A stretch of 57,672 nt of DNA, taken from assembly GCA_018813505.1 (NCBI GenBank), contig JAHJBM010000056.1:1-57672 (forward strand), given 5' to 3'. The first letter of the stretch is position 1, and every line of letters starts with the position of its first letter. Shown in pieces: positions 6,893-22,900 of this stretch. Under the pieces are notes generated by a model. It did not search any database. It was not told the DNA's origin and saw nothing but the letters and a program-made list of their open reading frames with translations. A program made the translations under genes and the position numbers. The DNA comes from Candidatus Micrarchaeota archaeon (GTDB lineage Archaea; Micrarchaeota; Micrarchaeia; Anstonellales; Bilamarchaeaceae).

Positions 6893-7417
6893 ATGGCGAA
6901 TATGCTGGACAGCTTTCAAGAAAGACTTCAGAAAGTCCGCGCAGGTATGCGAAAGATCGAGGATCTAGCATTTAACATCTACGAAGAATTTGATGAACAA
7001 TTTCTTACCCGTATTTACAGGGATGAACTCGGAGAGGTCTCTGTTCATGTGTTGTCAAATGATCTTAACAAGGATATCTCAACCATAGATCAGATATTTG
7101 ATCTGATCGCAAATCCGCCTGCTTCTGATTTCTACCGCGTTAAAATGCATACTTGCTCATGTTCAAAATTAAAACACCTGCAGCCAAAAGGCAAGATCCT
7201 GCTTAAAACAGTCAGAAATCTAAAAAAGCTCACAGCCGCAAAAAAATGCCTTCAAAATGATTTTTCATTAAGGCAGGTAGTGCTAAGGCAAAACGGCAAT
7301 GCACTTGAGATCCATGCAAAAGGGAAGGAACTTTCTATAATCGGTCGTTCACTAAACCAAATAAAGAAAAAGATTCGGGTTGTTGGTTTTTCTTCTATTC
7401 TTATCAGAGTTTCTTGA
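6893..7417 (+). CDS. hypothetical protein (174 aa)
   Basis: Only long ORF in the interval. No recognisable motif. Confidence 0.35.
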   Translation: MANMLDSFQERLQKVRAGMRKIEDLAFNIYEEFDEQFLTRIYRDELGEVSVHVLSNDLNKDISTIDQIFDLIANPPASDFYRVKMHTCSCSKLKHLQPKGKILLKTVRNLKKLTAAKKCLQNDFSLRQVVLRQNGNALEIHAKGKELSIIGRSLNQIKKKIRVVGFSSILIRVS

Positions 7418-8006
7418 ATGCAAGAATACCTTTTTCTGTTCTGAAAAAAGTGTATCCTTCTGACAAATAAAGTTTTTCAAGTTGGTTTCCTGCTTCTGTT
7501 ATGTAGTCAGCAATGCTACCTTTGGGTATGTCTTCATATAAATACCCGATTCCATATTGGAGTTTTTGTTCAACTACTTCTTTTTCCCGCTCTTTTAGTA
7601 ATATACGCCGTACTCCTCTGCCTTCATAAGCCAACAATACTGCTGGATCTTCCATATAAAGTGCATTTGCCTCACCACCTGTGATCGTTTTACTCTCAAT
7701 ATCTAGTTTGGCCGGCCATGCTAGTCCAACACCGATTATCATCCTGTTTACTGTTGCACCGAAACTTCTTCCATAATCAATTATGCTTTTTACCTCTGCT
7801 TCGGTGACATCAAACGCACATTTACGCATTACCTTAACACATTCATCTACGTCTTCATCTGTTAATCGTTGTATCTCTATTTCTTCCTCATCAAGAAGGT
7901 TAAGAAATTTTATTTTGTTCTCTTCTTTTTCATTTGCATCTTTTTTCGTTTCTTGTTTAAAAGATTCCATATTTCTCACATAAATCGTGTGCCACATGAA
8001 GGGCAT
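7404..8006 (-). CDS. GNAT-family acetyltransferase-like protein
   Basis: Acetyl-CoA motif-A-like LLAYEGRGVRRILL. An alternative start at MESFK (7970) would reduce the overlap with the upstream gene to 7 nt. Confidence 0.5.
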   Translation of the reverse strand: MPFMWHTIYVRNMESFKQETKKDANEKEENKIKFLNLLDEEEIEIQRLTDEDVDECVKVMRKCAFDVTEAEVKSIIDYGRSFGATVNRMIIGVGLAWPAKLDIESKTITGGEANALYMEDPAVLLAYEGRGVRRILLKEREKEVVEQKLQYGIGYLYEDIPKGSIADYITEAGNQLEKLYLSEGYTFFRTEKGILAFKKL

Positions 8007-8355: not shown

Positions 8356-11300
8356 TCAATCAATTATAGTGCAATTTATATCATACTCTCTTATATTTAC
8401 GACCTGCATTCCACAGAAGCTTGATATCGTTTGTATATCTGAGAAATCTCCACCTATACTGCAATCTGCGTTCGGATCCCCTGTTTTTGGGAATACTATT
8501 GGTTTGTTTATGGGATGTATCGATGATTTTTTTGAATAGCTATATGTTATTCCTGTGGTTTCATCGAGTAGGCAGCATTTATCTGGCTTTGAAAGCCCGC
8601 CAACGACGTCAAGATAAAGCTCAGAACCTACATCTGCCATTGATCCGGATATCGTTTCAGTTGTACTGTTCAAATATGTTTTCGTACATACATAATTTCC
8701 AGGTATCTCATTGCACAATCTGCACGGTTCCAATATTGTATTGTCAGGACATTTATACTGTACTCCTGCCTCAACACTATCAGGTAGTGTACAAAGTTCT
8801 CCATTCTCACAGGTCATTTCACAACTGCCCGGAGTTTCTACCTCGAGGCTATTGCATCGTGTGCAGTTTATCGATGTAAGTGCTGGTATTTCAGCAAACA
8901 TCGCCATTGGTGGACTTGCAGACATCATTCCCATTGCCTGTTGGAATGCACAGAACTTTTCATCTTTTATGCCCACGCCAGCATCAACATCCACCAATCC
9001 TGTTGATCCACTACCACTTTCATCGGTTGTCCTGACTGGTGAATATATTATCCCTATTATCCCTGACTTGATGAAGTCATCTTGTTTAAGTATCATATTT
9101 ACAAATATGTTCTCATAGTCTGCCCTATCAAAAACAGGGTAATTCTCAAGATTGAATCCTACTACCATTGTCGGTTTTCCTTTTGTTTGCAGTGCTATTC
9201 GGCCATATGATTCAAGATCCTCAGCAATCGCATTACCTCCGAAAAAAATTACCGGGCGTTCAGATGCCCTATAATCAAACGTTACAAGATCGATGTTGAA
9301 ATAGATTCTTGGGTCAGCTAGCACCGATACTACTGAATCTCTGAAGCTTTCATTTGTTAATGGGTTATCAACGTGGAATGCAACAAGACACCCAACACAT
9401 TTGCTTCTTACAATTGCAGATCGTTGTGCGATTTGTTCTATATCCTCAGCAGTTGCCTCACCTTTTATATGGTCTACAATGACTACTGTTGCACCCATAT
9501 TACCGAACAACTTTTCAAAATCATAGTCAAGATATTCATCAGATGCCTCAGTATAAAACAATGAATAGAACCATCCATATTCTTCATAATCCGGATTTTT
9601 CAGATTCCAATTAGTTTCATTACTTATATCAAGAACCGGCATAACTCCTGATTTCATATAGTTGCCCAGTCTCATCTTCATAACTGCGGCATCTGGTGCA
9701 GTTCTTGGCGATCCTTTGCTTCCTATCGAATCCATATATTCATCAATATCTGTGATATGGGGATTATAGCATGAGACACTATCGCTAACTTCTGTACCAT
9801 CTGACCAGCTCCAGTCTGCACTGTACTCTGCATCACATATCAATTCTTCATTCCTGTATTCACTGTCCTGTATGTTTGCAGTAATACCTGGCATGTAAAC
9901 ATCATCCTCTGCCTTTATCTCCTGATATGCGAGTGTTGATGTTGTACATGGATTACACCAGCCATATGTTTTCATCGTTGGCAGATATGTGGCATCATCA
10001 ACTGCGCAGCTGCCAATTCTGCCTGAGGTAGGGTTATATTTGAACAAATAAATGTACTTGCTGAAGAGCATGTTATACTCGGTTTCATAATCGCCGAAAG
10101 CTAATGTATAAATCCACGATCTCCTAAGTTCGCAACTACGTGTGTCTTTCCAATCATTTTCCATTATCCAGTCATATACATTTCTTTCACTTAACGATTG
10201 GGGGGCGAGAGAGCTGACAAATAAACTTCGCCTTCCTTCCCATGAAAAAATGTCCGTTACTCCCTTGCTATAGCTCACCACCCACGGGATCGAAGCGATT
10301 ATTGGATCATAAACATTCATGATCCCTCCGCATCCATCGCTGAATCCATTTTGCGTCATTCCTTCGACATTATCAAGGAAATATGGTGCAAATGCTTCCA
10401 TGAGGGTATCCCATGTCTGGTCTCCTTGAGAGTTTATTTGTAATCTTATGTAATCATCTGTATTGATTGTTCCAGTATCCGCGGCACTGCATGGTGCTGG
10501 TCCGGTGGCAGTACAATAAGCACTACATTCTTCTGCAAGTACATCTCCTTCATCATCATCATATGCTGGTGCACATGTATCTGCACATCCTGTGTCACAT
10601 TCCCAGCTACCATCCTGTTCAGGAAGCGAGAACGTGCTGGTGTGATCCATATCACAGTTTTTCACCACATACATATCCTCAAATTCATCAGGGCTTGCTA
10701 TTGCATATCCTATTATCGTATCGCCCATGTAAGTTACTGTATCCTGCCCTATTCTTCCAAAGAACACTGCACCACCTATTGGTGGTTGGTATGTGGATTC
10801 ATCAACCATTGAACACACTACAAAATCTTCACCATCATTTTCGCCATAGTCTTGCGGGCAGTCCCTTCTTTGTGTCAGATACGTATCAATATTGTATGGG
10901 GTGTGACTGATAATTCTTGTTGAGAATACTGTGCTTCTTGGTCCTGTTACCCAATCACTATCAGTAAATTCGTTCCAGTATCCTTCAAGTTCTTCCATCT
11001 TGTCATCGTCCATGAAATCCTCAAGCTCATACAATGGATTTCTGCCGCCTTCAACATGTGCAAACCCAACATCGACTTCAGCATAATCTATTGTTGGCGG
11101 CATTGTAGGATTTGGCTGGATAATATTTGTGGTTGGTGCACAGACTATTCTTGTCCTTCCATTTACATCCGTAATTTTGTTGCAATCAACCACCACTTCG
11201 GTTAGTGTTTCTCCCTCATCTGCACTATATCTTACGAATACTCCTCTGTTATATATACTCACATCACAGTTTCCAGAATAACACTCTGATTTACCGGCAT

Positions 11301-12312
11301 CACACTCAAAAGGTGCTCTTGTTGTTTCACCGCCAATGCCATAAATATCTCTTGCGTGTGCAACTGCAAGATTTCGTTTATAAAATCCAATGTCCAGTTC
11401 CTTATAAACGCTTTCAGGATTGAAATATTCATCACTATATGTGTAAAATCCCCCATCGTCAGCTACCCATTCTGCTTGATAATCAACATTTCCATGATGC
11501 GATAGATTGTAGCTTGACTGATCTGGCATTAATGTATCATACGTTATATCTCCAACCTCTGGCAGCGTACTTGACCTCTCGCCAGAGCTTTCAGAAAATT
11601 CAAAAGGTGCGGGTATATCGGAGTCATCAAGGCAATTTTCATCTATGTCAGATATCGGATCGAATTCGAGTCTGTCTGCACCTATATAATTCATATATCT
11701 ATCAACCCTTAGATCGTCTTCACTTCTTGGTGGATTGATATTGCAGAATTTGTCAGACATCGGGAAGTAATATTTATACTGGTCATATTCATTGAATGAG
11801 CCACCAACTCCCATTCTGAATACATTTATCGCTGATTTTGAATTTTTCATTACCTGCCTTAATTTTGCATCCATAGGAAGGAATCTGCACTGTGCCTTGT
11901 AGAACTGTGTTGTTATTCCTTCTTCAGTATCGGGCGGAATATCACCTGAAGAATCCTCTACACTTATGAATCCTGGTGCAACTCTTGGAGTGTATTTGTA
12001 GTCCCCACAAACCATGGCAGTACACTCTGGTGCTATGCAGGTTACAAGATCATCCTGTGTACATATCGGTATAAGATATTCGGTGCCTTCTATATCTACC
12101 TTGCAGTTGTCCGTCGTATCCTGTTCCTCATTGTCACATTCGCCTATTGTTGAACCAGTATAATCATATTCTAGGAAGTCTGTGGTGTTATAAAGTACAC
12201 ATCCATCCTCTATATTGTCTTTTAGACAACATCCCAATTTTGTTACTGGTTTTATGCATCCGGCGGCAATAATCAGCACAACAACCAGAATTGCAAATGT
12301 GAGTTTTTTCAT
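8356..12312 (-). CDS. giant (1318 aa) acidic, cysteine-rich secreted/lipoprotein-like protein, function unknown
   Basis: Signal peptide with lipobox-like end (MKKLTFAILVVVLIIAAG-C). I counted about 51 Cys. No further TM segment. An alternating beta/alpha-looking central segment (ATVVIVDH..CLVAFHV..LVTFDY..TMVVGFNL..IIGIIYSP). C-terminal CxxC-rich module. Confidence 0.85.
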   Translation of the reverse strand: MKKLTFAILVVVLIIAAGCIKPVTKLGCCLKDNIEDGCVLYNTTDFLEYDYTGSTIGECDNEEQDTTDNCKVDIEGTEYLIPICTQDDLVTCIAPECTAMVCGDYKYTPRVAPGFISVEDSSGDIPPDTEEGITTQFYKAQCRFLPMDAKLRQVMKNSKSAINVFRMGVGGSFNEYDQYKYYFPMSDKFCNINPPRSEDDLRVDRYMNYIGADRLEFDPISDIDENCLDDSDIPAPFEFSESSGERSSTLPEVGDITYDTLMPDQSSYNLSHHGNVDYQAEWVADDGGFYTYSDEYFNPESVYKELDIGFYKRNLAVAHARDIYGIGGETTRAPFECDAGKSECYSGNCDVSIYNRGVFVRYSADEGETLTEVVVDCNKITDVNGRTRIVCAPTTNIIQPNPTMPPTIDYAEVDVGFAHVEGGRNPLYELEDFMDDDKMEELEGYWNEFTDSDWVTGPRSTVFSTRIISHTPYNIDTYLTQRRDCPQDYGENDGEDFVVCSMVDESTYQPPIGGAVFFGRIGQDTVTYMGDTIIGYAIASPDEFEDMYVVKNCDMDHTSTFSLPEQDGSWECDTGCADTCAPAYDDDEGDVLAEECSAYCTATGPAPCSAADTGTINTDDYIRLQINSQGDQTWDTLMEAFAPYFLDNVEGMTQNGFSDGCGGIMNVYDPIIASIPWVVSYSKGVTDIFSWEGRRSLFVSSLAPQSLSERNVYDWIMENDWKDTRSCELRRSWIYTLAFGDYETEYNMLFSKYIYLFKYNPTSGRIGSCAVDDATYLPTMKTYGWCNPCTTSTLAYQEIKAEDDVYMPGITANIQDSEYRNEELICDAEYSADWSWSDGTEVSDSVSCYNPHITDIDEYMDSIGSKGSPRTAPDAAVMKMRLGNYMKSGVMPVLDISNETNWNLKNPDYEEYGWFYSLFYTEASDEYLDYDFEKLFGNMGATVVIVDHIKGEATAEDIEQIAQRSAIVRSKCVGCLVAFHVDNPLTNESFRDSVVSVLADPRIYFNIDLVTFDYRASERPVIFFGGNAIAEDLESYGRIALQTKGKPTMVVGFNLENYPVFDRADYENIFVNMILKQDDFIKSGIIGIIYSPVRTTDESGSGSTGLVDVDAGVGIKDEKFCAFQQAMGMMSASPPMAMFAEIPALTSINCTRCNSLEVETPGSCEMTCENGELCTLPDSVEAGVQYKCPDNTILEPCRLCNEIPGNYVCTKTYLNSTTETISGSMADVGSELYLDVVGGLSKPDKCCLLDETTGITYSYSKKSSIHPINKPIVFPKTGDPNADCSIGGDFSDIQTISSFCGMQVVNIREYDINCTIID

Positions 12313-12407: not shown

Positions 12408-13457
12408 TCATACTACCTTACTAACCATTCTTGTGAGCTCATATGTATCTCCTCCAAGTATTGTCATCATGTATTTTACAAAAACCATTGTAAGGAAAAA
12501 TGCTATAAGTGGATGCATTATGAGTGCAATATAGGATTTTGATAAGCCCTCACGCGAGGCCGAAAGCGAGAGTCCGACATTGCTTCCGAGTCCTGCACTC
12601 TCTACTGTCTTTAGTATTGTTACTGCATTTGACATTGTTGCATAACAGAATGGTTGCTGTTGTGGTTCTGCAGTTGCTGGTGGGGGTGGTGAAGCTACAA
12701 ATCCCGGATCAAGCAGCACAAAAAATATTGGAAAAATGAAATACATTCCTATTCCTAGGGCAAGGAACAACGCGCCCGGACCACGTGTGAAATAAAAACT
12801 CCGCAACAATATGCCAATAGGTATGAAGATACTGAGCATATTTGTTTGCAGATACTGCAGAAGTATCGATTGTGCATTCAATGCTATCAATAGAACAGTT
12901 GAAAGGTTATTTATTATTCTATTTATCTCTGTTTTTTTGTATAGTGTTGGAAGCCAGTCTCCTTTGAAAACAGTTATGCCAAAAAGACTTACTGCAAGAT
13001 TAAGTGAAAAATAATCCCAATATGTATCTGTATTTACTCTATCCTGTATTGCTGCCACTGCAACTGCTCTTTCCTGTAATCTGCATCTTATGGCATCATA
13101 TGCATCATCCATTGTTGTTTCCGGGTGATCTATGTCTTCGCCTATATGTATTGGTGTTGTTCCGCAATCAACTGTACCGCCTATAAACTGCTGTGACAAA
13201 ACCATAGTGCCTTCAACAATTCCTACAAGGAATATTGCCATAAAAGCAGTTGCCATAGTCTGAAGCATTTCTGATTTTGCAAATGCCTCAACTTCTCTAA
13301 GTGAAAATGCCCTTGCAATCATCAGGAAAATATTGTAAATTATCAGTGCTGTGATGACTGCCATAATACACAATGGCAACCAACCGGCCATCCATGTGGC
13401 ACCGTTATCGCCAAAGAAACTTTGGATTGAAATTATCGGGACGACAGCATCGATCAT
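12408..13457 (-). CDS. paralogous 5-TM membrane protein MP1 (349 aa), unknown family
   Basis: Shares family motifs EAFAKSE, FIPIGILLRSFYFTRGPGALFLALGIGMYFIFP and the C-terminal tail LGGDTYELTRMVSKVV. Confidence 0.85.
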   Translation of the reverse strand: MIDAVVPIISIQSFFGDNGATWMAGWLPLCIMAVITALIIYNIFLMIARAFSLREVEAFAKSEMLQTMATAFMAIFLVGIVEGTMVLSQQFIGGTVDCGTTPIHIGEDIDHPETTMDDAYDAIRCRLQERAVAVAAIQDRVNTDTYWDYFSLNLAVSLFGITVFKGDWLPTLYKKTEINRIINNLSTVLLIALNAQSILLQYLQTNMLSIFIPIGILLRSFYFTRGPGALFLALGIGMYFIFPIFFVLLDPGFVASPPPPATAEPQQQPFCYATMSNAVTILKTVESAGLGSNVGLSLSASREGLSKSYIALIMHPLIAFFLTMVFVKYMMTILGGDTYELTRMVSKVV

Positions 13458-13482
13458 GTCATCATCCTCGCCATTATAATCA

Positions 13483-14544
13483 TCATATCATCCTCGTTAT
13501 TCTGCTCAAATCTATCTCCTCGCCGTACAATCTTGCTATGTAGGATATGCTTGCTATTGTAGCGAGCATTGCCACGCTTGGCATAAATACTGCGGCTATG
13601 AATGCGTATGCAGCAAAACTTATGGCTTCAATATATCTGTCTTCACCTGGGAAATACTTCTCATATATATAATCTGCGCCTGCAAATGCGGCTCCTGTGC
13701 TTGAACCTGCTGCGCCTGATTCAGCTTCATCAGGGAAGACCTTTTCATTATAATTCATAGATGGATCAGAGAGATAATCCCCTTCTCTATTGACGAGTAC
13801 GTCTCCCATCAGATAAAATATGGAAAGCATAACAGGATAAACAACCAGGAAACATATCGCCATTGTTATAAGGAGCGATCCAAATGATCTCATGTATGGC
13901 ATTGCTCTCAGGAAGACTCCAAGCGGAAGGAATAGAAACACAAATCCTTTGTAAACAAATATGAGAATAAAAAGAAAGTTTAGTGCAGAGAAATACGATA
14001 TTATTGATGAATTGAAAAAGATGTTAAGTGCAGCTACTTTTGCACCATAACCTCCAAGTGGTTGTTGGTTCTCGCCAGAATACCCAAACAAACAACCCCA
14101 TCCTATTGATCCTGTGCTGAAATCGCAGATAAAGGCATTCAGGTAACCGAGCACTGTGTAGGCCTGAAGGTGATATCTTGTGGCAATCAGGGCATTGTGA
14201 GAATATATTGCAGCTTCTTCCAGATAGGTGGATGCGGCATCATAAACATCAACATGTTCTGTTGGCGCGCTTGTTGTTATGTCAAAAATGCCTGCAACTT
14301 CATTCATATTTATTGAACAAAGCGTATTTATGATTGTGATAAGAAAAAATATTGTGAATAATGATACTACTATTTGAATTGATTCTGTCTTTGCCCACAA
14401 TGTTAGTTTTGGATTTGAAATGGCCCTGCCTACCATGAATGAAAGCGCTATGATTATTGCGGTTGTTATGCTGGCATATGCTATTAGAGGTAGTATAGTA
14501 TCATTGAAAAAATTTGTGAAAATTATGTTACATACGTCTGCCAT
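13483..14544 (-). CDS. paralogous 5-TM membrane protein MP2 (353 aa), unknown family
   Basis: Motifs ISNPKLTLWAKTE, FLPLGVFLRAMPYMRSFGSLLITMAICFLVVYP and tail YGEEIDLSRITRMI. Its start overlaps the MP3 stop (TAATG). Confidence 0.85.
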   Translation of the reverse strand: MADVCNIIFTNFFNDTILPLIAYASITTAIIIALSFMVGRAISNPKLTLWAKTESIQIVVSLFTIFFLITIINTLCSINMNEVAGIFDITTSAPTEHVDVYDAASTYLEEAAIYSHNALIATRYHLQAYTVLGYLNAFICDFSTGSIGWGCLFGYSGENQQPLGGYGAKVAALNIFFNSSIISYFSALNFLFILIFVYKGFVFLFLPLGVFLRAMPYMRSFGSLLITMAICFLVVYPVMLSIFYLMGDVLVNREGDYLSDPSMNYNEKVFPDEAESGAAGSSTGAAFAGADYIYEKYFPGEDRYIEAISFAAYAFIAAVFMPSVAMLATIASISYIARLYGEEIDLSRITRMI

Positions 14545-15548
14545 TATACGAACCTCGATATTGCGCTTATATCTATTTCTGCACCTGCCAAGGATGTGAT
14601 TGCCTTTATGCTTGCAGCAACAAGCAGTAGTGATATTACTGGTCCAAGTGTTGCCCTCACCAGGGCAGTGTAGATATACTTACGTATGTCTGACCGTAAG
14701 CCTCGATATGCTTCTTTTGCATTGTCCTCATTTCCAGTTGTTGTTAGTGATGCGGCATCTCCTGCATTACACTCCGCTATATTTGCTGTTGGTGCTGCTG
14801 GTCCATATACTAATTCTGCATCAAACTCATCATCGTCATCAAGGAATGTTGCGGCCATCATTTCATTGAATATGATACCTGCCGGAAGCATTATGTATAA
14901 TGCAACCCCTAGTGCAATAAGCAATCCACCAGCTCCCCTCGTGAATTTCACCGTCCTTAATACTATGCCTAACGGAAGGAGCAGATTAAGTGCAAACTCT
15001 TTTGTTATCTGGATAAGTCTCTTCATTGCACTCAATTCCCCAATTGAAAATCCTACAATATTACCTGCGATTGAAAGTGGAGCAGCTAGTACAGTATAAC
15101 CCCCACAACCGCTGACAGTATATCCCATTCCCATTATGCTACATTGTGATGACTTAGATGCTTCCCTTGATATCTGTAAATCATAAGAACTTATCTGATC
15201 CATTATTTCTCCACTATCGTCTATAATATCATCAATAATTAGTGTTGCTGCATCCTGCATTGTTGCGGATCCTTGTGCGAGTCCTTCGTTTGTTGAGATG
15301 CTGTTTAGGATACTGTCACCGCCTACTAATGTTGCAAGAAGGAGTCCAAAAACAATTAGCTGTACTAGTTCTTCCTTTGCCATCATTTGCATTTCATTTA
15401 ATCCAAAGCCAAATCCTACCATATATATAACTGCAAGTAATCCTGCTGATATGCCAAATGCAAGAAGTGCAATGTTCTGCCATGCTGCAAATGCCATTGG
15501 CACCATGAACAAAAATATCAATAAAAACAACATCGTGCGCTTCATCAA
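14544..15548 (-). CDS. paralogous 5-TM membrane protein MP3 (334 aa) with signal peptide, unknown family
   Basis: Signal-peptide-like N-terminus ending MAFA-AW. Motifs MQMMAKEE, LLPLGIVLRTVKFTRGAGGLLIALGVALYIMLP and tail AGAEIDISAISRFV. 4-nt overlap with MP4. Confidence 0.85.
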   Translation of the reverse strand: MMKRTMLFLLIFLFMVPMAFAAWQNIALLAFGISAGLLAVIYMVGFGFGLNEMQMMAKEELVQLIVFGLLLATLVGGDSILNSISTNEGLAQGSATMQDAATLIIDDIIDDSGEIMDQISSYDLQISREASKSSQCSIMGMGYTVSGCGGYTVLAAPLSIAGNIVGFSIGELSAMKRLIQITKEFALNLLLPLGIVLRTVKFTRGAGGLLIALGVALYIMLPAGIIFNEMMAATFLDDDDEFDAELVYGPAAPTANIAECNAGDAASLTTTGNEDNAKEAYRGLRSDIRKYIYTALVRATLGPVISLLLVAASIKAITSLAGAEIDISAISRFV

Positions 15549-17662
15549 AACACCTTAGATATTCCTGGGATTTCTATGTCCCCTCCGAGTATGGTTGAAA
15601 GTCCTTTGATAAATACCAATGTCGCTACAATATTGAACAATGGAAGCAGGTATATTGGAAGTATCAATTTAGCGATGTTCTTTATTCCCTCTCTACCAAC
15701 CAAGCCATCTTCACCTATGTTCATATAACTTCCAGCATCCTTTATGGGTGCATTATCCGGTGGTTTGCAGATATCTGCGCATTGGGTTTGGATTGGTGGA
15801 TCATATGCATATGATTCTTCAGCAAACAAACACATTTCGCACGAGCTTCTTGGAACTACTACTCTATACTCGCCAGGACACAAATCAAGTGAGCACCCAT
15901 CTGTTGTGTATTCTTCTGGTAATGATGGGGTTACAATTCGTTTTTCAGCTGGGCAAGCACTACACATTCCTTCAGGCACGGTAATCTCAAGTATGTCATG
16001 TTTCCTTACCTTACAACTGTTAGGGCAGTTCATACATGCTTCTGAAAACACTGTTCCTGTTTCGTCCTTGCAATCATCAGGTAGTTGATCAAAATCTACT
16101 TGGTCTTCTTCAGTATAATTTGGGTTGTTATCTATCCTGCAATAGGCCGGGCAATTCCCGCATATTGCCTCGTCATTGCATGTGCCTATTTCAGGTATCA
16201 CATATGCACATGATTGTTCTGCAACTAGGTTCACTGGGCAATTCTGTGCAATTAAACATTCATGATAATTTCCTGCATCTTCATTTGGCGTAGGCCACCA
16301 TGTGAGCGAACTACCCAATTCGCTTCCAGTTCTTTTGTATACTCTGCAATCATATCTTGACTCAAGGCAGTCATCAACATCACAATTACTTCTTAATGGT
16401 GGAACTACCTTGCACATTGATGGGCATTTATTATAGGTATCATTGTCAAAACTTGAAGCTTCAGTATTCACATAACGCACAACTTTGCAGTTCTCGTTTA
16501 AGTGTGCACAATCCCTTTCAACTGTCGAAGTATTAAGGCACACTACTGCATTATATGGATAAGGTAGTGCTCTGCACACTGATGGGCAATCCTCTTCACT
16601 ATATTCATAATAACACGAGAAGACTAATGTGCCATCGCGGCCAGCTGTCGATTCCAGGCTGCCTTCTATTAGTTCTTTTGCTGCAGCTGCGTTATCCTCA
16701 GGTAATGCGGCATATATCTCTTGTACGGTTTCAAGTTTTTCTCCATCTGCTTTATACGCAAGTGGTGGGGCTGCTTTGCATTCATCAGGACAATAGACAT
16801 TTTCATCTTCCATTGCCTTATCACCTGTCATGGCCATATCAAGTGTAACCCAGTCAAAAATGTACATGCCAGGTAAGAAGAACATTATGCCTGCTGCAAC
16901 TGCAATAAGAAGTCCGCCTAGTTTTCTTGTAAAATAAAATGTTCTGGCAATAATGCCCAAGGCAAGTATTATCGGTCCCATCTTAAACGATATCTGGTTT
17001 ACAAAGAACCGTTGCGCTTCCATGAAAGATAATAGGTTTGTATAGTACTCAAACATTATGGCATACATATCCATGTCCAGCACATACTGCCCTGCCATCG
17101 TAGTTGTGAGTCCGAGTTGTAAACAATATATTGTCAGGCAGTTAAGTCCCATCCTTCTGTTTGCCCATGAGGCCGCATCGATATTGTTTATTAGAACACT
17201 TCTTGCTCCTGTTTTTGCAGTTTCAATATAATCATACAAATACGCATCTGTGACATTTCTTAGACAGCTTCCTCCAGGTACACTACATTCAGGTATATTT
17301 AGCCCGCTTGTCATTACCATTGCAGAAACTATGGTATCTACAAATCCTATGGCAACTATGAACATCAGGATTATTACAGCATTTGCAAATATCTGGCCAA
17401 GTTCATTTCCTGCCCATGCTTTTATTTCAGGCATTTCCATTCCAGTTCCTACTGCATATGCAATAGCAACCAATATGCACGATATAATCAGTGCAATCAC
17501 AGCAAGCGCTTGCCAGTTTTTTATTATTTCAAGTGGTGATCCTTCGGTCTCACCTTCTATTCCAGAAGTCGCATTCTGAAACTGCGTTTGAGTATATGTG
17601 TTTGCAAAGCAGAGCGTTATGAACAACGTCAGGAATATAAGAAGCAGTATTGGTTTTTTCAT
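15545..17662 (-). CDS. paralogous membrane protein MP4 (705 aa) carrying a ~370-aa, 32-Cys ectodomain insertion
   Basis: Signal peptide MKKPILLLIFLTLFITLCFA. Motifs MPEIKAWAGNE, IILALGIIARTFYFTRKLGGLLIAVAAGIMFFLP and tail LGGDIEIPGISKVF. The Cys-rich insert lies in the loop after TM4. Confidence 0.85.
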   Translation of the reverse strand: MKKPILLLIFLTLFITLCFANTYTQTQFQNATSGIEGETEGSPLEIIKNWQALAVIALIISCILVAIAYAVGTGMEMPEIKAWAGNELGQIFANAVIILMFIVAIGFVDTIVSAMVMTSGLNIPECSVPGGSCLRNVTDAYLYDYIETAKTGARSVLINNIDAASWANRRMGLNCLTIYCLQLGLTTTMAGQYVLDMDMYAIMFEYYTNLLSFMEAQRFFVNQISFKMGPIILALGIIARTFYFTRKLGGLLIAVAAGIMFFLPGMYIFDWVTLDMAMTGDKAMEDENVYCPDECKAAPPLAYKADGEKLETVQEIYAALPEDNAAAAKELIEGSLESTAGRDGTLVFSCYYEYSEEDCPSVCRALPYPYNAVVCLNTSTVERDCAHLNENCKVVRYVNTEASSFDNDTYNKCPSMCKVVPPLRSNCDVDDCLESRYDCRVYKRTGSELGSSLTWWPTPNEDAGNYHECLIAQNCPVNLVAEQSCAYVIPEIGTCNDEAICGNCPAYCRIDNNPNYTEEDQVDFDQLPDDCKDETGTVFSEACMNCPNSCKVRKHDILEITVPEGMCSACPAEKRIVTPSLPEEYTTDGCSLDLCPGEYRVVVPRSSCEMCLFAEESYAYDPPIQTQCADICKPPDNAPIKDAGSYMNIGEDGLVGREGIKNIAKLILPIYLLPLFNIVATLVFIKGLSTILGGDIEIPGISKVF

Positions 17663-18660
17663 CCTAACACCTTCATCGCCTTATTCATCCCACTTAGGAA
17701 CGTTATCAGTACCGCAATAGTTAAATTTGGCAAGAAGAATGCCTGTGGTATAAGTCTTGCAACATTCCAAAAGCTGTTCGGGTTTGTGCATGTGGCTATC
17801 GGATCATCTGAGCAACCATAGCTGTCTATGGTGTTGTCACATGCAACATGCGCATATTCTTCACAGTCATACATCACTAATTCATACATAGTAAGCGTGA
17901 ACACATACATAAACGGTACGAGTATATAAAGTCCGAGTGCCAGGGCAATCATAATATTTCCCATTTGTCGTGTTGGTGGGAATACACGCAATACAAATGC
18001 TACTGGCAATATCCATCTTACCGTATTATCTGTGATAAATCTCAGCGCAAGTTTCTGCATGCTTATACTCATAAGTGAGGGCACAATGAACGTATTGAGT
18101 ATCATATCATATTGGTTTGAGATTATTCTTTTGTATGCCCCACCGCTTACTGTGTATGCATTGAACAGAGGTATTTGTATACTATATGAAAATGTTGAAT
18201 CCATAAGGTATCCAATATAATTGTCTATATATCTTTCAGCCAATCTCTTTGAATCACGATCTATCATATTCATGTAGCACATGGAAACAGAATTCATTTG
18301 AGAGCCTGCATTATAACATGTGGATTCCGCGTCAAAATGTGTGAATATCGATTCATAAAACATGCTCATAGTACTACATGTAAAAAGCACTATTCCGCTA
18401 AAAGCAACCAGCATCAAAAGCGAAAATCCGAGGTGGTAAAGTTCGTCTTTTGCAAAAACAATGTATTTTGGGTCGCTTATAACGTTTCCTAGCATGTAAG
18501 TTCCTGCAATTACAAGTACTGTGAGCATGATCGCTGCAACAATGTTTACTCCTTCTTCGCTTAGCACAATTTCTGTGGCATTATTGATACAACTGCCTGG
18601 GAATACTACTGCGGTTAGAAACAGAACAGCTATTATGATCCTGCATATGGGAATCATCAT
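17659..18660 (-). CDS. paralogous 5-TM membrane protein MP5 (~333 aa) with signal peptide, unknown family
   Basis: Motifs ISDPKYIVFAKDE and ILPVAFVLRVFPPTRQMGNIMIALALGLYILVP. I prefer the start at MMIPICRII (18660), which forms an ATGA overlap with the MP6 stop. The ORF track extends to 18690. Confidence 0.8.
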   Translation of the reverse strand: MMIPICRIIIAVLFLTAVVFPGSCINNATEIVLSEEGVNIVAAIMLTVLVIAGTYMLGNVISDPKYIVFAKDELYHLGFSLLMLVAFSGIVLFTCSTMSMFYESIFTHFDAESTCYNAGSQMNSVSMCYMNMIDRDSKRLAERYIDNYIGYLMDSTFSYSIQIPLFNAYTVSGGAYKRIISNQYDMILNTFIVPSLMSISMQKLALRFITDNTVRWILPVAFVLRVFPPTRQMGNIMIALALGLYILVPFMYVFTLTMYELVMYDCEEYAHVACDNTIDSYGCSDDPIATCTNPNSFWNVARLIPQAFFLPNLTIAVLITFLSGMNKAMKVLG

Positions 18661-19856
18661 ATCAGCCTCTGTATTCCTGCCATATACCACTCGCCTCCCA
18701 GCGCCCCGGAAATACTTCTAGCCCCTGCAATCGTTATGATTCCTATAAGTATAATGTCAAGATAACCTAGAAAAACAAGGTTGCCCACATCCCTCAGGAA
18801 CGGGTAAAGTGCATTGAATACCTGATTTGCATAATCATCTGATCCTGCGCTATAAACCGCTTCCCATATTATAAGCACTGCCATTATCACGAGCTGGAAA
18901 ATCATATTTATAAGAGGATAAACAACTTCTTTTACGAGGTTATAACAGGCCGTGTATAATCCAACGCCGATAACTGGTACAAGCAGCATTGGCAGGCATA
19001 CGATAAGTGCGAATCCAATATCAGTTGAAAGTAGCAGTGTCCTCATTACAGTTGATTCGCATAATGGTTCCATCATTACCATTGCCCATGGCCTTGCTTC
19101 AAGTTCTGAAAGATCGATGCTTGGTTCAGGTCTATCTATTGTTTGGTTCATTGATTCTGCAAGTATCACTGAAAACGGGAGCAATACTATACCTGCAACT
19201 GCAAGCGCTATAAGTGTGTTGCCTGTTTTTCTTGTGAATGGTATAATCCTAAGGCAAAGTGCAAGTGGGAGAAGTATTTTTGGTGCTGTTATTTTGATAA
19301 ATGAAAGTAACATACGTACTCCTTCTGTTACAAATATTACGTTCGCAAGATTTTGGGCTGCAATATTCATGCTTCCGAGTACTATGCCCACACCAGCTAT
19401 TGGTGATGTTGAATAGCTAATTGATACATACCATAATGGCAGGCTCATGTATGGTGAATAGGTAGCTGATGCGCGAATCCTTGTTGCAGCACCAACTATT
19501 TTTTCAAATGCATTGTCATAATCTTCAAGCCATTGATCTGCGATATTCTCTGCACCCTGAATATAATTCACATCTCCAGTAAGTGCAATACTTATGCTGT
19601 TTGATGTTACTGTAAAAAACAATCCCATGATAATCGCGATCAATAAAAGTGCTGCAACAAATTCCCGTGTTTCAATCTTGATCCATGCGTCAAGCTTTGG
19701 ATCAGAAATCGCATGTGAGAGCATTCCTGCAGTAGCAAGAAATATCCCTACTATGATTGCAACTGCCGGTACTGCAAAAGTAAGGTCTATGGGATTTACT
19801 GAAAATATTGTGGTTGTTAAGACAAATAGTAATAATATAGGGCGCCACAATTGCAT
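18657..19856 (-). CDS. paralogous 5-TM membrane protein MP6 (399 aa), first gene of the operon, unknown family
   Basis: Signal-peptide-like N-terminus. Motifs ISDPKLDAWIKIE, LLPLALCLRIIPFTRKTGNTLIALAVAGIVLLP and tail LGGEWYMAGIQRLI. Confidence 0.85.
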   Translation of the reverse strand: MQLWRPILLLFVLTTTIFSVNPIDLTFAVPAVAIIVGIFLATAGMLSHAISDPKLDAWIKIETREFVAALLLIAIIMGLFFTVTSNSISIALTGDVNYIQGAENIADQWLEDYDNAFEKIVGAATRIRASATYSPYMSLPLWYVSISYSTSPIAGVGIVLGSMNIAAQNLANVIFVTEGVRMLLSFIKITAPKILLPLALCLRIIPFTRKTGNTLIALAVAGIVLLPFSVILAESMNQTIDRPEPSIDLSELEARPWAMVMMEPLCESTVMRTLLLSTDIGFALIVCLPMLLVPVIGVGLYTACYNLVKEVVYPLINMIFQLVIMAVLIIWEAVYSAGSDDYANQVFNALYPFLRDVGNLVFLGYLDIILIGIITIAGARSISGALGGEWYMAGIQRLI

Positions 19857-19950
19857 AGCTAGATTTCTTACTTATACATTTAAATGTTTCGTGTTTTTGG
19901 AATCGTGCATGATGCATCATGTTTATAAATTTACTAAAATAATTCCCATC
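19857..19950. promoter_or_regulatory. divergent promoter region with two TATA-like boxes
   Basis: ATTTAAAT (19878-19885) is centred ~25 nt from the MP6 ATG (19856, minus). TTTATAAAT (19922-19930) is centred ~25 nt from the ATG at 19951 (plus). This spacing fits leaderless archaeal transcripts. Confidence 0.4.
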
Positions 19951-22900
19951 ATGAGGCTTATTCCAGCTTTTCTCTGCATTGTGCTCTTTGTTCTTATCAC
20001 ATCTGTCGCTTTTGTCTTTGCCAGTAACCCACCTCCGTGTATCACATGTAACGAGCTTGCAGATTCATTCCAGGTACATCTATTGTCTGAGTTGCACGAG
20101 CCGGAAAACCAGTTTGAGGTTTGGGCATACTATGAAGATACTTCCATAAGTCCTCCAAGGCAACCTGTAAATGATTCCATACTTATTGTTGAAATAAGAA
20201 ATGTTGATGGACTAAGTGAAATCTATAAAATATACACCGATGATGCTGGGAATGCAATTTTTGATTACGAGGACTGGAATGACGCTTGCATAAATTTCAA
20301 AGTTCTTTATTGTCCTTTTTGTTTGCCAGATTCCGAGGAATGCGGTTTCCGTGAATGCCTTGAATATTCGAGCATAAGCACAGATTCTGGTACATACACC
20401 AACATTATCGGAGCTGTTGAAACTATTGATAGTATTCCTGCTGCACCTGGGGCATCGCCGCCTGTTGAGTTGGATTCGCGGAGATTTCTTCCAGAATTCG
20501 TAACAACAACCTATTGTCCCCCTCCTGCTCCACTTTCAGGTACTCCGGCAATGTGTCTTCCATTATTAGTTATTTTTTCAATGCTTGCAGGTTCACTTTA
20601 TATGACCGGGCGAAATCCGTTTGCAGGATTTAGTATGGGTGGTGCAAAGATTGGGAGGCACATCAGATACCAGGCACGGGGTCGCGGTTTCCATTTCTCT
20701 GGAATGGCTGCACTTTCTGCAATTAGTACTGTCACGCGTGCCAGTAAGACTGGAATGACTAAAGACAAAAAAACTGGTGAACGTGGTGGTTCCAAGGCAC
20801 TCGGAAAACAAGAAAAAGCGCAGGCAAACAATCGCGGTTTCCTTGGCATGGGTGGCCTTAGCAGTAAAACAAGCAGATTTTCTGCACTCTCAAACCGCGG
20901 GGGGCAGATAAAACGACTCATGAAAGATAGTTTAAAAGGAAAAACAGATAGCAAAGGCAAAGCTCTAAGTTTCAATGAAAGACTCAAGCGCGGTAACAAA
21001 TGGATTGAATCAACTGCTTCTGGGGCTGGTAGGGATACCGCAACATCAGTTGCTGTAAAACCTGGGGAATCCCAATTCCTTCCAGGTTCAAGTGGTATGT
21101 CACCCCGTTTAAGCGAGCTCGGGAGTCATGCCGGCCTAGGACTTGTAGTTTATCTTCTTAGTGCCACAACAATCGGTGGTATTGTCGATAGCATTTATCG
21201 ATCTGCCACTGGGCAATCTATATTCGAGGCTCTTTTTGTCGACCATGAAAGACGTGCAGTTCAGGATGCAACCTCCTTTGATGAAATCGCAGAGCAAAGA
21301 TGCGTGCGTAATGCAGATGGACGCATAATTGCATTGAACATTGACATAGATGGCCGTGAAAGAGTTACTGTCATTGGCTCAAGGCCTGGTGAGGAAGAGG
21401 GTACAACTGTTTACACTGTCAATGTACCTGTAAGTTCAGAATTTGCAGGTGAGGAAACAGTTGTTGTTGATGAACATGGGACAGCTGTTCCAACTCCCTC
21501 TGGACAGACAAATCGCGGGACATTTGAAGTTACTACTGATTCCAGAAATCGCGTAATTCAGATAGCTTATCAAGCGCCTTCATCAATTAATCTTTCTGGT
21601 CCTAATGCGTCTCCATGGGTTGCAGGTGCTGCACCAGCAGATCTTATTGCTGGAACAGAGCGTGTGGTAGTGCGTGTCGGGGCTGATGGCTCTCCGCAAT
21701 TTACTGTGGAATATCAGATTCGCGGTAGCGATGGTCGTGCTGAGACACGCACTTCACCAATTACCGCGCCTGTTGCAGGCACTGATATTGAAGGTTTGGG
21801 TGACCGCATGAACTTTGCAGGTGTGAATGCAACCTATGGTGGTATAGTTGCCGAGTCTGGGTTTAGTCTTGGTTCAAACGCATCTGACTTTACTAATGCC
21901 TATAGTGGAGGTCTTGAGGATCTCAGGGCTGCTGCGGCTTCATCTTCAGAAAACACTCAACGGGCACAACAGGAAAATCAACATGATCTTAACAGGGCAT
22001 TGCGCGATGTTGATCCAAATTATGTGAGATCTGTAAGGGCCGAGTATGCAGACAATCTAGTCGGATTCCTAGTAGCTGGTACCTCTGGTTCCACTGCAGG
22101 TGTTGATCTTCGTGAGACTAGTTTTGAAGGTCAGCCGGCTGGTCCTGGATATGATGTAAGTTATGCAGGTTCAAGAGGTCGGGTTGAAGGAGGCAGACCT
22201 AATGATCGGATGGATCCTTCTTCTTCAATTGCGTTAAACATTGGCCAAGCTTGGGGTCGGACAATTGGTGACTCTGATTTTGCAGGTCAGGTTGCAGAGG
22301 CATCTGGTCTTGAAGGTTCAGGTAGGGTTCAATTTACCCGCGTTTTAGGCATTGCATTGGCCAGAAGTGATCACAGTCCTGAGGATTTCAGAAGCATGAC
22401 TCTTGATGAATTCCAGGGGGTGCTTAGAGACAATGGTCTGAGTGAGGATGTTGCCCGTGATGTTGGAGCCGGTGCGCTTGCAAGAGTACAAGATGGTTTC
22501 GCTGATCTTGAACGTGAACTGACAAGGGAAGGAAACAGAATCGGCGCAGATGCAACAGATCGTCTTATGGGGTCCAGTGTAGCACAAGTTAGTGGGGTGG
22601 TGCAGGGTGCAGGGTCTCTTTTTGATGATAATGTAGGTTCATTATTACAGGATCGTTTGACTGATCCACAACTTGCGGAAGTTGCCCCCCAGTTAAGAGA
22701 ACAGGCTTTCCTTGATGGTATGGGTGATTCAGTGGGTGGGGCACAGGCCTCTTTGGGAGTTAATGCTGGGTCTGGCCCTAATAGTAATATTGTAGGTTTC
22801 GAACAATTTGGCGGTAATATGGCTTCGCTTAGGGAAAATACTGAAGACTATGTACAACAGGTTGCAATTGATCGTGCTCATCGTAGCGGTCATCTGAGTG

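Follow-up and report, generated by a model that had tools for sequence, protein, structure and literature searches.

Six tandem membrane protein genes on a Micrarchaeota chromosome probably encode the membrane part of an envelope transport machine, because a fixed set of six recurs across the phylum and a motor ATPase stands beside the array in related genomes. With a probability of roughly 60%, I take the six proteins (MP1 to MP6) to make up the membrane platform of an envelope machine that is encoded on the chromosome, driven by an ATPase and working in the manner of the Ced and type IV secretion systems (T4SS); the platform is probably a hetero-hexamer. The fixed set of six and the ATPase adjacency in relatives are among the points that are new here, and no published description of the six-paralog array was found in the literature. 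The whole stretch analysed (57.7 kb, hereafter the window) is Micrarchaeota chromosome of the Anstonellales/Bilamarchaeaceae clade, so that the DPANN host proposed in the initial annotation is borne out; the host is described as a tiny symbiotic archaeon.

The ORF listing gives six co-directional, mostly overlapping genes at 12408-19856 on the minus strand (Table 1), in agreement with the initial annotation, which had also described ATGA overlaps at three junctions and TAATG at MP3/MP2. The ATGA overlaps stand at MP6/MP5 and MP5/MP4, as does TAATG, and a small correction is needed only at MP4/MP3, which reads TGATG, a 1-nt overlap with an ATG start (4 nt only with a TTG start); MP2 and MP1 are separated by a 25-nt gap with GAGG inside. 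Translational coupling within the array counts in favour of the joint machine proposed here. MP5 has an alternative GTG start at 18690 and position-specific orthologs at other loci, MP6 (P0118, 100% match; NCBI KKF81_01280, 'hypothetical protein') carries additional hydrophobic helices in its second ecto-loop region, and MP1 corresponds to P0117 (100% match; KKF81_01305). The 32 cysteines of MP4 fall at residues 291-632, within the TM4-TM5 interval and thus in a predicted outside loop, as had been claimed, and the gene in this third position is large (600-900 aa) in nearly all loci. From a reading of the sequence, the divergent region upstream of MP6 is presumed to be a bidirectional promoter.

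Table 1. The MP array and its flanking features, in window coordinates.
Feature	Position	Strand	Description
Giant Cys-rich protein	8356..12312	-	1318 aa, 51 Cys; lipoprotein-type signal (…IIAAGC); seventh gene of the unit in the window's clade
MP1	12408..13457	-	349 aa; final array member
MP2	13483..14544	-	353 aa; no cleavable-looking signal; overlaps MP3 at TAATG
MP3	14544..15545	-	~333 aa from ATG at 15545; signal peptide-like N-terminus
MP4	15545..17662	-	705 aa; core plus ~390-aa insert between TM4 and TM5, predicted extracellular
MP5	17659..18660	-	~333 aa from ATG at 18660; without GG(D/E) C-tail
MP6	18657..19856	-	399 aa; heads the array; signal-like N-terminal helix plus family core
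Divergent intergenic region	19857..19950	.	94 bp; AT-rich TATA-like boxes ~25-30 nt upstream of both start codons
Large bitopic protein	19951..23460	+	divergently transcribed; signal peptide, Cys-containing ectodomain, TM near ORF residues 314-338

That the six belong together as true paralogs, in a family without annotation, is clear from the all-versus-all comparison, in which 15 of the 15 pairs align (21-27% identity; BLASTP 31-56 bits, phmmer 12-48 bits), and from a family profile search of 1.84 billion representative proteins, which recovered 3137 clusters at E<=1e-3, so that the similarity reflects neither chance nor mere transmembrane composition. No Pfam, NCBIfam or PDB match was obtained for MP1 to MP6, as the earlier statement of no recognisable family implied. 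Conservation was measured over 383 family members with MP3 as the reference for numbering, and it upholds the LPxGxxLRxxxFTRxxG...P hairpin of TM3-TM4 (R198 98%, R204 98%, G207 97%, P222 100%), the juxtamembrane AKxE motif (E60 91%) and the C-terminal GG(D/E) tail (G322 79%), the last being missing in MP5 as originally noted. A D-x-Y/W signature that had been read in an ectodomain helix is not kept family-wide, the mean column identity of that region being 17-26%. Across the same 383 members, all invariants lie on the predicted cytoplasmic side or in the TM3-TM4 hairpin, and ectodomain columns have a mean identity of 14-26%.

Every one of the complete related loci (~60) holds exactly six members on the same strand, and this number recurs across the phylum. 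The order MP6-5-4-3-2-1 is clearly kept in the window's own clade, where orthology is position-wise (e.g. 329 versus 32 bits for the best and second type), and was recovered for part of the Fermentimicrarchaeales-type loci (position-specific HMMs, five loci), while the most distant lineages leave it ambiguous. All orthologs of MP3 (n=116) belong to Micrarchaeota. As the GC content of the array equals that of its flanks and its neighbours are housekeeping genes, the array is not a recent mobile element. Since exactly six recur in every complete locus, with order clear in the nearer clades, the hetero-oligomeric platform suggested from the initial reading is much more plausible now.

The N-out/C-in topology with five transmembrane segments and variable ecto-loops, originally deduced from signal peptides and basic residues, agrees with the hydropathy profile and with AlphaFold models of MP3 (pLDDT 85.1, pTM 0.80) and MP1 (pLDDT 81.7, pTM 0.73). 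Neither model returned a significant fold match in Foldseek, and for both the top match was the non-significant TTYH2 (E 0.25-0.31, TM 0.17-0.22), a Tweety-type protein that likewise has five transmembrane segments, N-out/C-in, and an extracellular bundle of helices. DPANN archaea depend on their hosts for lipids and metabolites, and with TTYH2 heading both lists the MPs could be conceived as independent small channels, transporters or TTYH-type lipid handlers, that is, tandem duplicates without a joint complex; this is highly improbable, however, as Pfam and NCBIfam gave no transporter family match and all six genes are strictly retained phylum-wide, overlapping and in an order that is fixed wherever it is resolvable, which argues for co-assembly rather than redundancy.

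The proposed link to a motor comes from other Micrarchaeota orders, where genes for two 2-TM proteins and a highly conserved VirB4/CedB/HerA-type ATPase follow immediately downstream of the array. The gene string is fuller in Fermentimicrarchaeales, Micrarchaeaceae and many metagenomic lineages, with intergenic gaps of -4 to 55 nt, and comprises the six MP paralogs, two paralogous 2-TM hairpin proteins (m) that each have a ~200-aa soluble domain and are possibly adaptors in the proposed machine, a P-loop ATPase of the VirB4/CedB/CedD/HerA type (~500 aa), a coiled-coil protein ending in a winged helix (c257) and a bitopic protein of ~800 aa (p811). An independent retrieval, a metagenome scan with the ATPase alone as query, gave the layout [6 x MP]-m-m-ATPase-c257-p811 at most loci with 8-10 kb of upstream flank (ten loci), and the same layout is present at nine loci of GTDB genomes and in a named Micrarchaeaceae MAG. 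A minimal operon on one metagenomic contig, flanked by unrelated genes, consists of a single MP, a single m, the ATPase and the coiled-coil protein, spaced 1-3 nt apart. The ATPase matches AAA_10 (3.6e-13), DUF87 (6e-13) and P-loop_TraG (6e-10) in Pfam, its best NCBIfam matches are CedD, CedB and VirB4-like CD1110 with the whole P-loop domain aligned, and in the PDB it matches VirB4 4ag5 (2e-10, residues 59-335).

The linkage is not obligatory and could partly be inherited synteny, because four ATPase loci have no array within 10 kb. One of them, L059, is an Anstonellales MAG, the order of the window, in which the six-gene array is separated from the ATPase module: neither ATPase nor m, c257 or p811 homologs were found in the 57.7 kb. 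Since L059 holds the module without an adjacent array and the ATPase is near-universal, the source genome presumably encodes the module elsewhere. The initial annotation saw no secretion-type ATPase in the window and could not call a known system; the first point stands, and the second is altered by the occurrence of the same array in one tight string with a VirB4/CedB/HerA-type ATPase in other orders.

The ATPase belongs to the FtsK/HerA/VirB4 superfamily and has more than 1170 homologs, with identities of 57-100% among the 120 matches listed, which suggests an essential role. Such extreme conservation, together with weak CdvB_HTH and ZapB matches of c257 and a chromosomal context that places ScpB beside the array, would also be compatible with a housekeeping function in cell division or DNA segregation, with the whole module, MPs included, acting as a split, FtsK-like, membrane-anchored DNA pump for segregation or septum closure and having no part in secretion or host contact. 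I regard this as quite unlikely, as the CdvB and ZapB matches fall below Pfam thresholds, over its full length the ATPase resembles VirB4/TraC/CedD rather than FtsK, and large, fast-evolving Cys-rich ectodomains linked to extracellular giants are hard to square with a purely internal division device.

These giants are two. A homolog of the Cys-rich lipoprotein, without a Pfam or NCBIfam domain, directly follows MP1 at ~40 loci, often with its start codon overlapping the MP1 stop codon, and keeps its lipobox, an 'LGCC' motif and mostly odd cysteine counts. The bitopic giant (likely start 19951), which ends in a ~900-aa low-complexity C-terminal region, is a clade-specific partner, always adjacent in the window's clade, where its homolog lies divergently upstream; at nine loci it is on the same strand directly after the lipoprotein. 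A DsbA-like gene also lies inside the window. This neighbourhood and the variable Cys-rich ectodomains, as well as the DsbA-like gene, would suit an extracellular structural role in which the MPs anchor and assemble the two giants, independently of any ATPase, as a surface scaffold or adhesin stalk. I consider such a role unlikely, given that the giants occur in one clade only (HMMs of both find none at loci with the ATPase beside the array), that the six MPs have a far greater age and spread and are conserved most strongly on the cytoplasmic face rather than outside, and that the ancestral-looking partner is the ATPase module.

The topology reported for VirB6 (N-out, five transmembrane segments, a large loop after TM2, C-in) matches that predicted for the MPs, and the MPs might be highly diverged but bona fide VirB6/TrbL/CedA proteins of an archaeal T4SS or conjugation system with a Rickettsiales-like VirB6 paralog array. 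The VirB4-type ATPase neighbour in related genomes agrees with this, as does the rank of TrwI/VirB6 for the MP3 model (6th of 350,542 chains), although the match is non-significant (E=0.59, TM 0.19-0.22) and TrwI is not among the best 50 for MP1; moreover, archaeal VirB6-like proteins are undetectable by sequence (PMC9905601). Membership is nevertheless not supported: PF04610 (TrbL/VirB6) gave no match at E<=1, hhalign of the 383-sequence profile with A. tumefaciens VirB6 gave a probability below 1%, and no pilin, VirB2, VirB3, VirB5, VirB8, coupling protein or relaxase was recognised. With no homology to VirB6, CedA or any known channel detected by sequence profiles, hhalign or Foldseek, the earlier VirB6 comparison finds no support as homology, and a bona fide VirB6/TrbL/CedA identity is distinctly improbable. 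As a functional analogy, the comparison with VirB6 and type IV secretion gains real contextual support all the same, because related arrays are fused in one string with an ATPase module.

In the ATPase-driven machine that I favour, one copy of each of the six paralogs (1:1:1:1:1:1) would assemble into a ring or platform of pseudo-sixfold symmetry. The AKxE motif, the GG(D/E) tail and both invariant arginines in the turn between TM3 and TM4 would make up its conserved cytoplasmic face, which could dock the hexameric ATPase, with the 2-TM proteins as possible adaptors. Motors of the FtsK/HerA/VirB4 superfamily are established hexamers, and the subunit counts across versions (six MPs, two or one m, one ATPase) fit such a motor in that all divide six. 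The ectodomains, which are helical and divergent and include the Cys-rich MP4 insert, would form an asymmetric extracellular stalk that may hold or present giant surface proteins; in Anstonellales the array has parted from the ATPase module and is joined to the disulfide-rich lipoprotein and the second, bitopic protein. The cargo that the machine carries across the membrane would be a macromolecule, which the analogy with Ced, Ted and type IV secretion suggests to be DNA or protein, and the site of transfer would probably be the contact with the host cell. Ced and Ted are themselves minimal derivatives of the T4SS, encoded on the chromosome, with VirB6-like parts that escape detection by sequence (PMC9905601, PMC11868833), giant surface proteins of nanohaloarchaea carry VirB4-like domains (PMC10266531), and Patescibacteria possess a near-universal chromosomal T4SS that is essential for epibiosis (PMC12102498).

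The six tandem minus-strand open reading frames (MP6, MP5, MP4, MP3, MP2 and MP1, in the order of transcription) described in the initial annotation are present exactly where it placed them in the ORF listing, and the paralogy claimed for them is borne out by 15 of 15 pairwise comparisons, all significant at 21-27% identity (BLASTP 31-56 bits, phmmer 12-48 bits), with seven invariant columns in a multiple alignment of the six. The ATGA overlaps reported at MP6/MP5 and MP5/MP4 and the TAATG overlap at MP3/MP2 are all seen at the junctions; at MP4/MP3 the coupling itself stands, but with the conserved ATG it is a 1-nt TGATG overlap, and the 4-nt overlap first reported appears only with an upstream TTG. 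MP2 and MP1 are 25 nt apart with a GAGG inside the gap, and another 95 nt separate MP1 from the next gene. The cysteine-rich insert of MP4 was also read correctly (32 cysteines, residues 291-632, between the fourth and fifth hydrophobic helices), and the GC content of the array (0.39-0.41) is that of the window, which is an archaeal chromosome because it carries FttA/aCPSF1, a proteasome subunit, exosome subunits, SBDS, ScpB and a tRNA with a long intron (a gene that ARAGORN missed). MP1 and MP6 are identical to KKF81_01305 and KKF81_01280 of 'Candidatus Micrarchaeota archaeon' in NCBI, both annotated as hypothetical, and the nearest named relatives are Candidatus Bilamarchaeum and Bilamarchaeaceae, which fall in the order Anstonellales and a phylum now called Microcaldota. 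Conservation was measured over 383 members covering all six MP types, in MP3 numbering, and the most conserved positions are given in the table; across these members mean column identity is 0.40-0.58 in the conserved segments versus 0.14-0.26 in the two ecto-regions. The N-out/C-in orientation proposed earlier agrees with the prediction made here from signal-like N-termini, three basic residues that give the TM3-TM4 turn a +3 charge, and the Cys-rich loops, and it implies that the residues common to all six proteins would be cytoplasmic or intramembrane, whereas the parts in which they differ would face outward.

Searched against 1.84 billion representative proteins, the MP family HMM retrieves 3137 clusters at E<=1e-3 (the best 150 of which were inspected) and 736 at E<=1e-30. 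A scan of one genome per GTDB species with MP3 orthologs as the query gave 53 loci, and all of those with a phylum-level name are Micrarchaeota, including the complete genome of Ca. Fermentimicrarchaeum limneticum. Scoring of the ORFs with the family HMM shows exactly six tandem members on one strand in every locus whose flank is long enough. Classified against the window proteins, the members stand in the order MP6-5-4-3-2-1 in all of the window's clade, by wide margins (for example, 329 vs 32 bits), and position-specific HMMs recover the same order in loci L044, L045, L050, L061 and L064; among the most distant loci, a clear assignment is limited to the third position (MP4-like) and the last (MP1-like). 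These sets of six and the recovered order therefore place the six-fold duplication before much of the phylum's radiation, and probably before all of it. Two MAGs, JAKEGJ01 (L007 and L027) and JBNLBN01 (L023 and L030), each have two complete arrays of six genes with giants, on different contigs, reflecting either a duplicated system or mixed bins.

The partner that gives the array a context is found in related genomes. In distant GTDB loci (L046-L052, L054 and L057) three genes come after the array, spaced by 4-10 nt, the first two of which encode ~270-aa paralogs, each with a 2-TM hairpin and a ~200-aa soluble domain, and the third a ~500-aa protein matching AAA_10, DUF87/HerA, TraG P-loop, TrwB and FtsK domains. 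This linked ATPase scores above the Pfam cut-offs (AAA_10 49.8 bits against 27.5, DUF87 49.8 against 23.2, P-loop_TraG 38.7 against 25.8) and belongs by Pfam to the FtsK/HerA/VirB4 P-loop superfamily, with a match to the PDB VirB4 structure 4ag5 at 2e-10 over the full domain. Its best NCBIfam models are CedD, CedB, VirB4-like CD1110, HerA and TraC, none of which reaches its family cut-off (CedD 68 bits with a cut-off of 600, CedB 65 with a cut-off of 700), and the alignments to VirB4, TraC and CedD cover the whole P-loop domain while those to HerA span ~100 residues only. Public databases label the MPs 'hypothetical protein' and the ATPase 'ATP-binding protein', 'DUF87' or 'HerA repair helicase', the last of which is probably wrong.

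As an independent test, metagenomes were searched with the ATPase alone and the upstream genes were then examined. Most ATPase loci with 8-10 kb of flank read six MPs, two 2-TM proteins, ATPase, a small ORF, a coiled-coil/winged-helix protein and a ~800-aa bitopic protein (the full string is in L061, L065, L073, L078, L085, L088, L095, L096, L101 and L115), four or five MPs being seen in several loci where flank was limiting, and the same full string occurs with gaps of -4 to 55 nt in L141, from a MAG named Candidatus Micrarchaeaceae. More than 1170 ATPase homologs were found; all 120 listed are 57-100% identical, and the source names among them are nearly all Micrarchaeota lineages. No MP gene lies near the more distant VirB4-like ATPases (26-30% identity) of L118-L140. 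A minimal operon on metagenomic contig L105 has a single MP, nearest among the six types to MP1, followed by one 2-TM protein, an ATPase with 44% identity to that of Micrarchaeota and a coiled-coil protein; the gaps are 1-3 nt and the flanking genes unrelated, and the operon may represent an ancestral or a reduced homo-oligomeric state. The ATPase of L054 contains a LAGLIDADG intein, and similarly oversized versions (~1050-1170 aa) are present in L063, L064 and L102; inteins are usual in essential, highly conserved genes. The coiled-coil protein after the ATPase ends in a winged-helix-like segment and has weak to faint Pfam matches to CdvB_HTH and ZapB, which may hint that it is connected with cell division or binds DNA. 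These matches, together with the very high conservation of the ATPase, would fit a module that acts as a housekeeping DNA-segregation or division pump, a reading that I consider unlikely.

The window itself belongs to a clade in which this arrangement has been rearranged. The initial annotation noted the absence of a secretion-type ATPase, and this holds: no VirB4-family ATPase is found in the 57.7 kb, nor any homolog of the 2-TM proteins and their partners. A second architecture exists in which a single 2-TM protein accompanies the ATPase and its partners, with no array within 10 kb (L059, L068, L069, L072 and L104), and because L059 belongs to a MAG that bears the name of the window's own order, Candidatus Anstonellales, I infer that the window's genome encodes its ATPase module elsewhere; none of the 120 listed ATPase matches lies on a contig that also bears a window-type array. 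What accompanies the array in this clade is a giant Cys-rich protein, found directly after MP1 in ~40 loci, and a second giant, which is either divergent and upstream, as in the window, or on the same strand right after the first (L031 and L036-L043). The first giant has an N-terminus with an n-region, an h-region and a [LAS][AS]GC lipobox (the window protein begins MKKLTFAILVVVLIIAAGC), and the lipobox and following LGCC are kept in ~35 orthologs, with mostly odd cysteine counts (45, 47, 49, 51, 53, 61 and 63) that fit one lipidated cysteine plus disulfide pairs, the lipidation being predicted. In its distant orthologs, conservation is confined to ~200 aa at the N-terminus and ~290 aa at the C-terminus. 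The second giant lifts local GC to 0.43-0.46 versus ~0.39 for the window, has no domain that could be found, and is conserved among orthologs only at ORF residues ~125-600.

That the MPs are a scaffold for these giant surface proteins is an unlikely explanation; the giants adjoin the array throughout those ~40 loci, and HMMs of both match nothing in the loci where the array adjoins the ATPase, which rules them out as universal partners and argues that they are later, lineage-specific ones. Other clades have different very Cys-rich secreted proteins after the array or module (see the table), none detectably homologous to the window's giant. The idea that the giant is an S-layer protein was also ruled out, since the Micrarchaeota S-layer protein of Ca. 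Micrarchaeum harzensis is defined by PF05123 (bioRxiv 10.1101/2021.04.28.441871) and the 1318 residues of the giant contain neither this nor any other Pfam domain at E<=1. Just downstream of the giant, genes for a Lon_C-domain membrane protein and a protein with a weak GNAT match stay at this place in the majority of loci from the window's clade. Elsewhere in the window a DsbA/thioredoxin-like gene fits extracytoplasmic disulfide formation in this organism's many Cys-rich surface proteins, and three further sizeable ORFs lack a Pfam match at the thresholds in the table.

Features of the window and of related loci, with conserved MP residues (MP3 numbering; conservation over 383 members)
Feature	Location	Strand	Description
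Lon_C-domain membrane protein	window 5101-6849	-	582 aa
GNAT-like protein	window 7404-8006	-	200 aa, weak GNAT match
Giant	window 8356-12312	-	1318 aa, 51 Cys, lipoprotein-type signal …IIAAGC, then LGCC
Six-gene array	window 12408-19856	-	MP6 to MP1
Second giant	window 19951-23460	+	bitopic; ~900-aa low-complexity C-terminal region rich in G, S, A, R, E
tRNA with long intron	window 25226-25387	+	162 nt total; Rfam 41.6 bits
ORF	window 28297-29871	+	524 aa, no Pfam match at E<=0.001-0.01
DsbA/thioredoxin-like protein	window 36498-37427	+	Thioredoxin_4 3.9e-26
ORF	window 44367-45629	+	420 aa, no Pfam match at E<=0.001-0.01
ORF	window 47725-49725	+	666 aa, no Pfam match at E<=0.001-0.01
Cys-rich secreted proteins	L044:5864-13802		1995 aa with 75 Cys and 392 aa with 69 Cys
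Cys-rich secreted protein	L045:13233-15686		817 aa, 35 Cys
Cys-rich secreted protein	L046:18483-20936		817 aa, 50 Cys
Coiled-coil protein	L050:14781-15554		after ATPase
Coiled-coil protein	L059:12200-12811		after ATPase
Coiled-coil protein	L141:12262-12981		after ATPase
ATPase with intein	L054:12597-15740		1047 aa
Minimal operon	L105:8243-12151		one MP
VirB6 of A. tumefaciens C58 (pTiC58)	L060:48454-49341		hhalign template
E60	start of TM2		91%
R198	TM3-TM4 turn		98%
R204	TM3-TM4 turn		98%
G207	TM3-TM4 turn		97%
P222	TM4		100%
G322	C-tail		79%

What kind of protein the MPs are was approached through both family and fold. Neither the six MPs nor the two flanking giants give anything above noise in Pfam-A (hmmscan, E<=1) or NCBIfam, and PDB sequences contain no match to the MP family profile. 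Confident AlphaFold models built on deep ortholog alignments (MP3 pLDDT 85.1, pTM 0.80; MP1 pLDDT 81.7, pTM 0.73) both have a TM hairpin and long helices leaving the membrane into a helical ectodomain, to which MP1 adds two small beta-hairpins, and further on a second TM hairpin bearing the conserved motif. After this come a second ecto-loop with little order and, at the end, a long TM helix with a short tail. Foldseek searches of the two models against 350,542 PDB chains returned no match at E<=0.001, the best being TTYH2, ExbB, de novo helical bundles and BAR domains, all with a TM-score <0.3. The TTYH fold was the top match for both, but at E 0.25 and 0.31 and TM-scores of 0.17-0.22 it is non-significant and was rejected; TTYH1-3 do share five TM helices, an N-out/C-in orientation and helices extended into an extracellular helical bundle with the MPs, yet they are eukaryotic, have no ATPase partner and resemble the MPs in architecture only; independent TTYH-like channels are a highly improbable identity for the array.

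The initial annotation had pointed instead to the topology of VirB6/TrbL and named PF04610 as the family to check. That family gives no match to any of the six MPs in Pfam-A (E<=1), nor does NCBIfam, and hhalign against the A. tumefaciens VirB6, with the single pTiC58 sequence as template, which limits sensitivity, reached probabilities of 0.13% with a 32-sequence profile and 0.3% with a 383-sequence profile. Profiles of the MPs and 2-TM proteins stayed below 2% throughout against A. tumefaciens VirB1-VirB6, and VirB1, B2, B3 and B5 showed no similarity to either. In Foldseek, the VirB6 homolog TrwI (7o3v) ranked sixth for MP3 (E 0.59, TM-scores 0.19/0.22) and was absent from the MP1 top 50, so that neither model gave a significant match. 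The topological part of the proposal fared better, since hydropathy and the two AlphaFold models fit at least five TM helices, an N-terminus outside, a large loop after TM2 and a C-terminus inside, all of it predicted, and the tandem VirB6 arrays of Rickettsiales provide a parallel in their paralogs, some of them hugely extended, and in their association with a VirB4-type ATPase (seen for the MPs in related genomes). VirB6 systems nevertheless differ in having further VirB components, none recognized here, and the R388 VirB6 is a homopentamer (7o3v), versus the six-membered heteromer proposed for the MPs; no HMM, profile or significant structural similarity joins the two. Judged by sequence, VirB6/TrbL membership thus fails every homology test run, and true VirB6 homology is improbable. 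Because those tests fail while the topology and the genomic partner in related genomes match, the array is better compared in its working to the channel or platform component, likewise polytopic, of a minimal type IV or Ced-like system than counted as a VirB6 family member.

The interpretation with the best support makes the six proteins the membrane subunits of an envelope machine driven by an ATPase. Three things argue for co-assembly: their fixed number, the overlap between their genes and, among the nearer clades, the order they keep. Since the shared residues would be cytoplasmic and FtsK/HerA/VirB4 motors are hexameric, a pseudo-sixfold ring onto which the ATPase motor would dock is suggested; the subunit counts across versions (6, 2 or 1, and 1) all divide six. 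With its divergent ectodomains, the ring would then be asymmetric on its outer face, where it could hold surface proteins. Carried to its full form, this becomes a tentative proposal to which I would assign a probability of roughly one in five: that a hetero-hexameric MP ring pairs 1:1 with a hexameric VirB4/HerA-type motor as an envelope translocon, with a fold new to the PDB, for the uptake or exchange of macromolecules (DNA, proteins, lipids) at host contact. I would rate the whole as an envelope machine with a VirB4/HerA motor whose membrane family is new and comes, without precedent, as a fixed set of six paralogs; the possibility that its membrane part is new in kind is a real one.

Attached to their host cells, DPANN archaea do without most biosynthesis; no DPANN-encoded transfer apparatus is known to have been identified in Micrarchaeota. 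Here is a concrete, phylum-wide and strongly conserved gene set, consisting of six 5-TM paralogs, 2-TM adaptors, a VirB4/CedB/HerA-type motor and lineage-specific giants, and if it is also carried by the cultured Ca. Micrarchaeum harzensis, a member of the Micrarchaeaceae, the family to which the L141 MAG is assigned, the hypothesis becomes open to experiment. The one-gene L105 operon set against the six-gene arrays would be a clean case for the evolution of an obligate hetero-oligomer from a homo-oligomer. It would be speculation to equate the system with the unassigned 21-nm barrel seen by cryo-ET in the symbiont envelope of cultured Microcaldus ARM-1 (PMC11329633). Published literature on Micrarchaeota or DPANN in connection with VirB4, VirB6, CedB, HerA, secretion, S-layer or gene clusters yielded no description of the array or the module.

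By analogy, the transfer of DNA or protein at host contact is the most likely class of function, on three precedents: Ced/Ted, the nanohaloarchaeal giants with a VirB4-like domain (PMC10266531) and the type IV secretion systems (T4SS) of CPR bacteria (PMC12102498). Ced/Ted of Crenarchaeota (CedA/CedE/TedA with CedB/CedD/TedB) are DNA importers derived from type IV secretion, chromosomal and 'domesticated', whose VirB6-like parts are undetectable by sequence (PMC9905601, PMC11868833); like the array system they lie off mobile elements and combine an ATPase of the VirB4/HerA clade with polytopic membrane proteins (5-7 TM) lacking sequence similarity to bacterial VirB6, and it is their CedD and CedB that best match the array-linked ATPase in NCBIfam. 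CedB and CedD carry TM, N-terminal and ATPase domains in one protein (PMC11868833), so that separate 2-TM-plus-domain proteins and a bare ATPase could possibly be a split version of that layout. In contrast, Ced/Ted have one or two membrane proteins rather than six obligatory paralogs, their NCBIfam models find no match among the MPs, and no CedA1/TedC-type pilin was recognized among the genes examined at array loci, whereas the array system adds the coiled-coil/wHTH protein, the 800-aa bitopic protein and the giant lipoprotein, resides in a DPANN symbiont instead of a crenarchaeon and has a putative function. The SPEARE-type giants of Nanohaloarchaeota, with their VirB4/TraG-like domain, likewise are giant membrane-anchored extracellular proteins of DPANN tied genetically to VirB4-family ATPases and, like the window-type giants, proposed host-interaction conduits; however, their ATPase is fused to a giant with an Ig-like repeat ectodomain and no six-paralog array is described for them (PMC10266531), while the window-type giants are Cys-rich, carry no ATPase domain and occur in the one clade where the ATPase is not adjacent. 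The closest ecological analogue is the T4SS of Patescibacteria/CPR, near-universal, chromosomal and VirB4-based in ultrasmall episymbionts, where virB6 is essential for growth of the cultured strain ML1 and PrgI (VirB3-like) for its epibiotic growth (PMC12102498), although that system is bacterial, of the MPF-FATA class, and has recognizable VirB6, VirB3, VirB8 and pilins, none of which can be recognized at the array. The parallel with this CPR system, essential for epibiosis, and with Ced/Ted suggests that ultrasmall symbionts in both domains have made convergent or shared use of VirB4-type machines.
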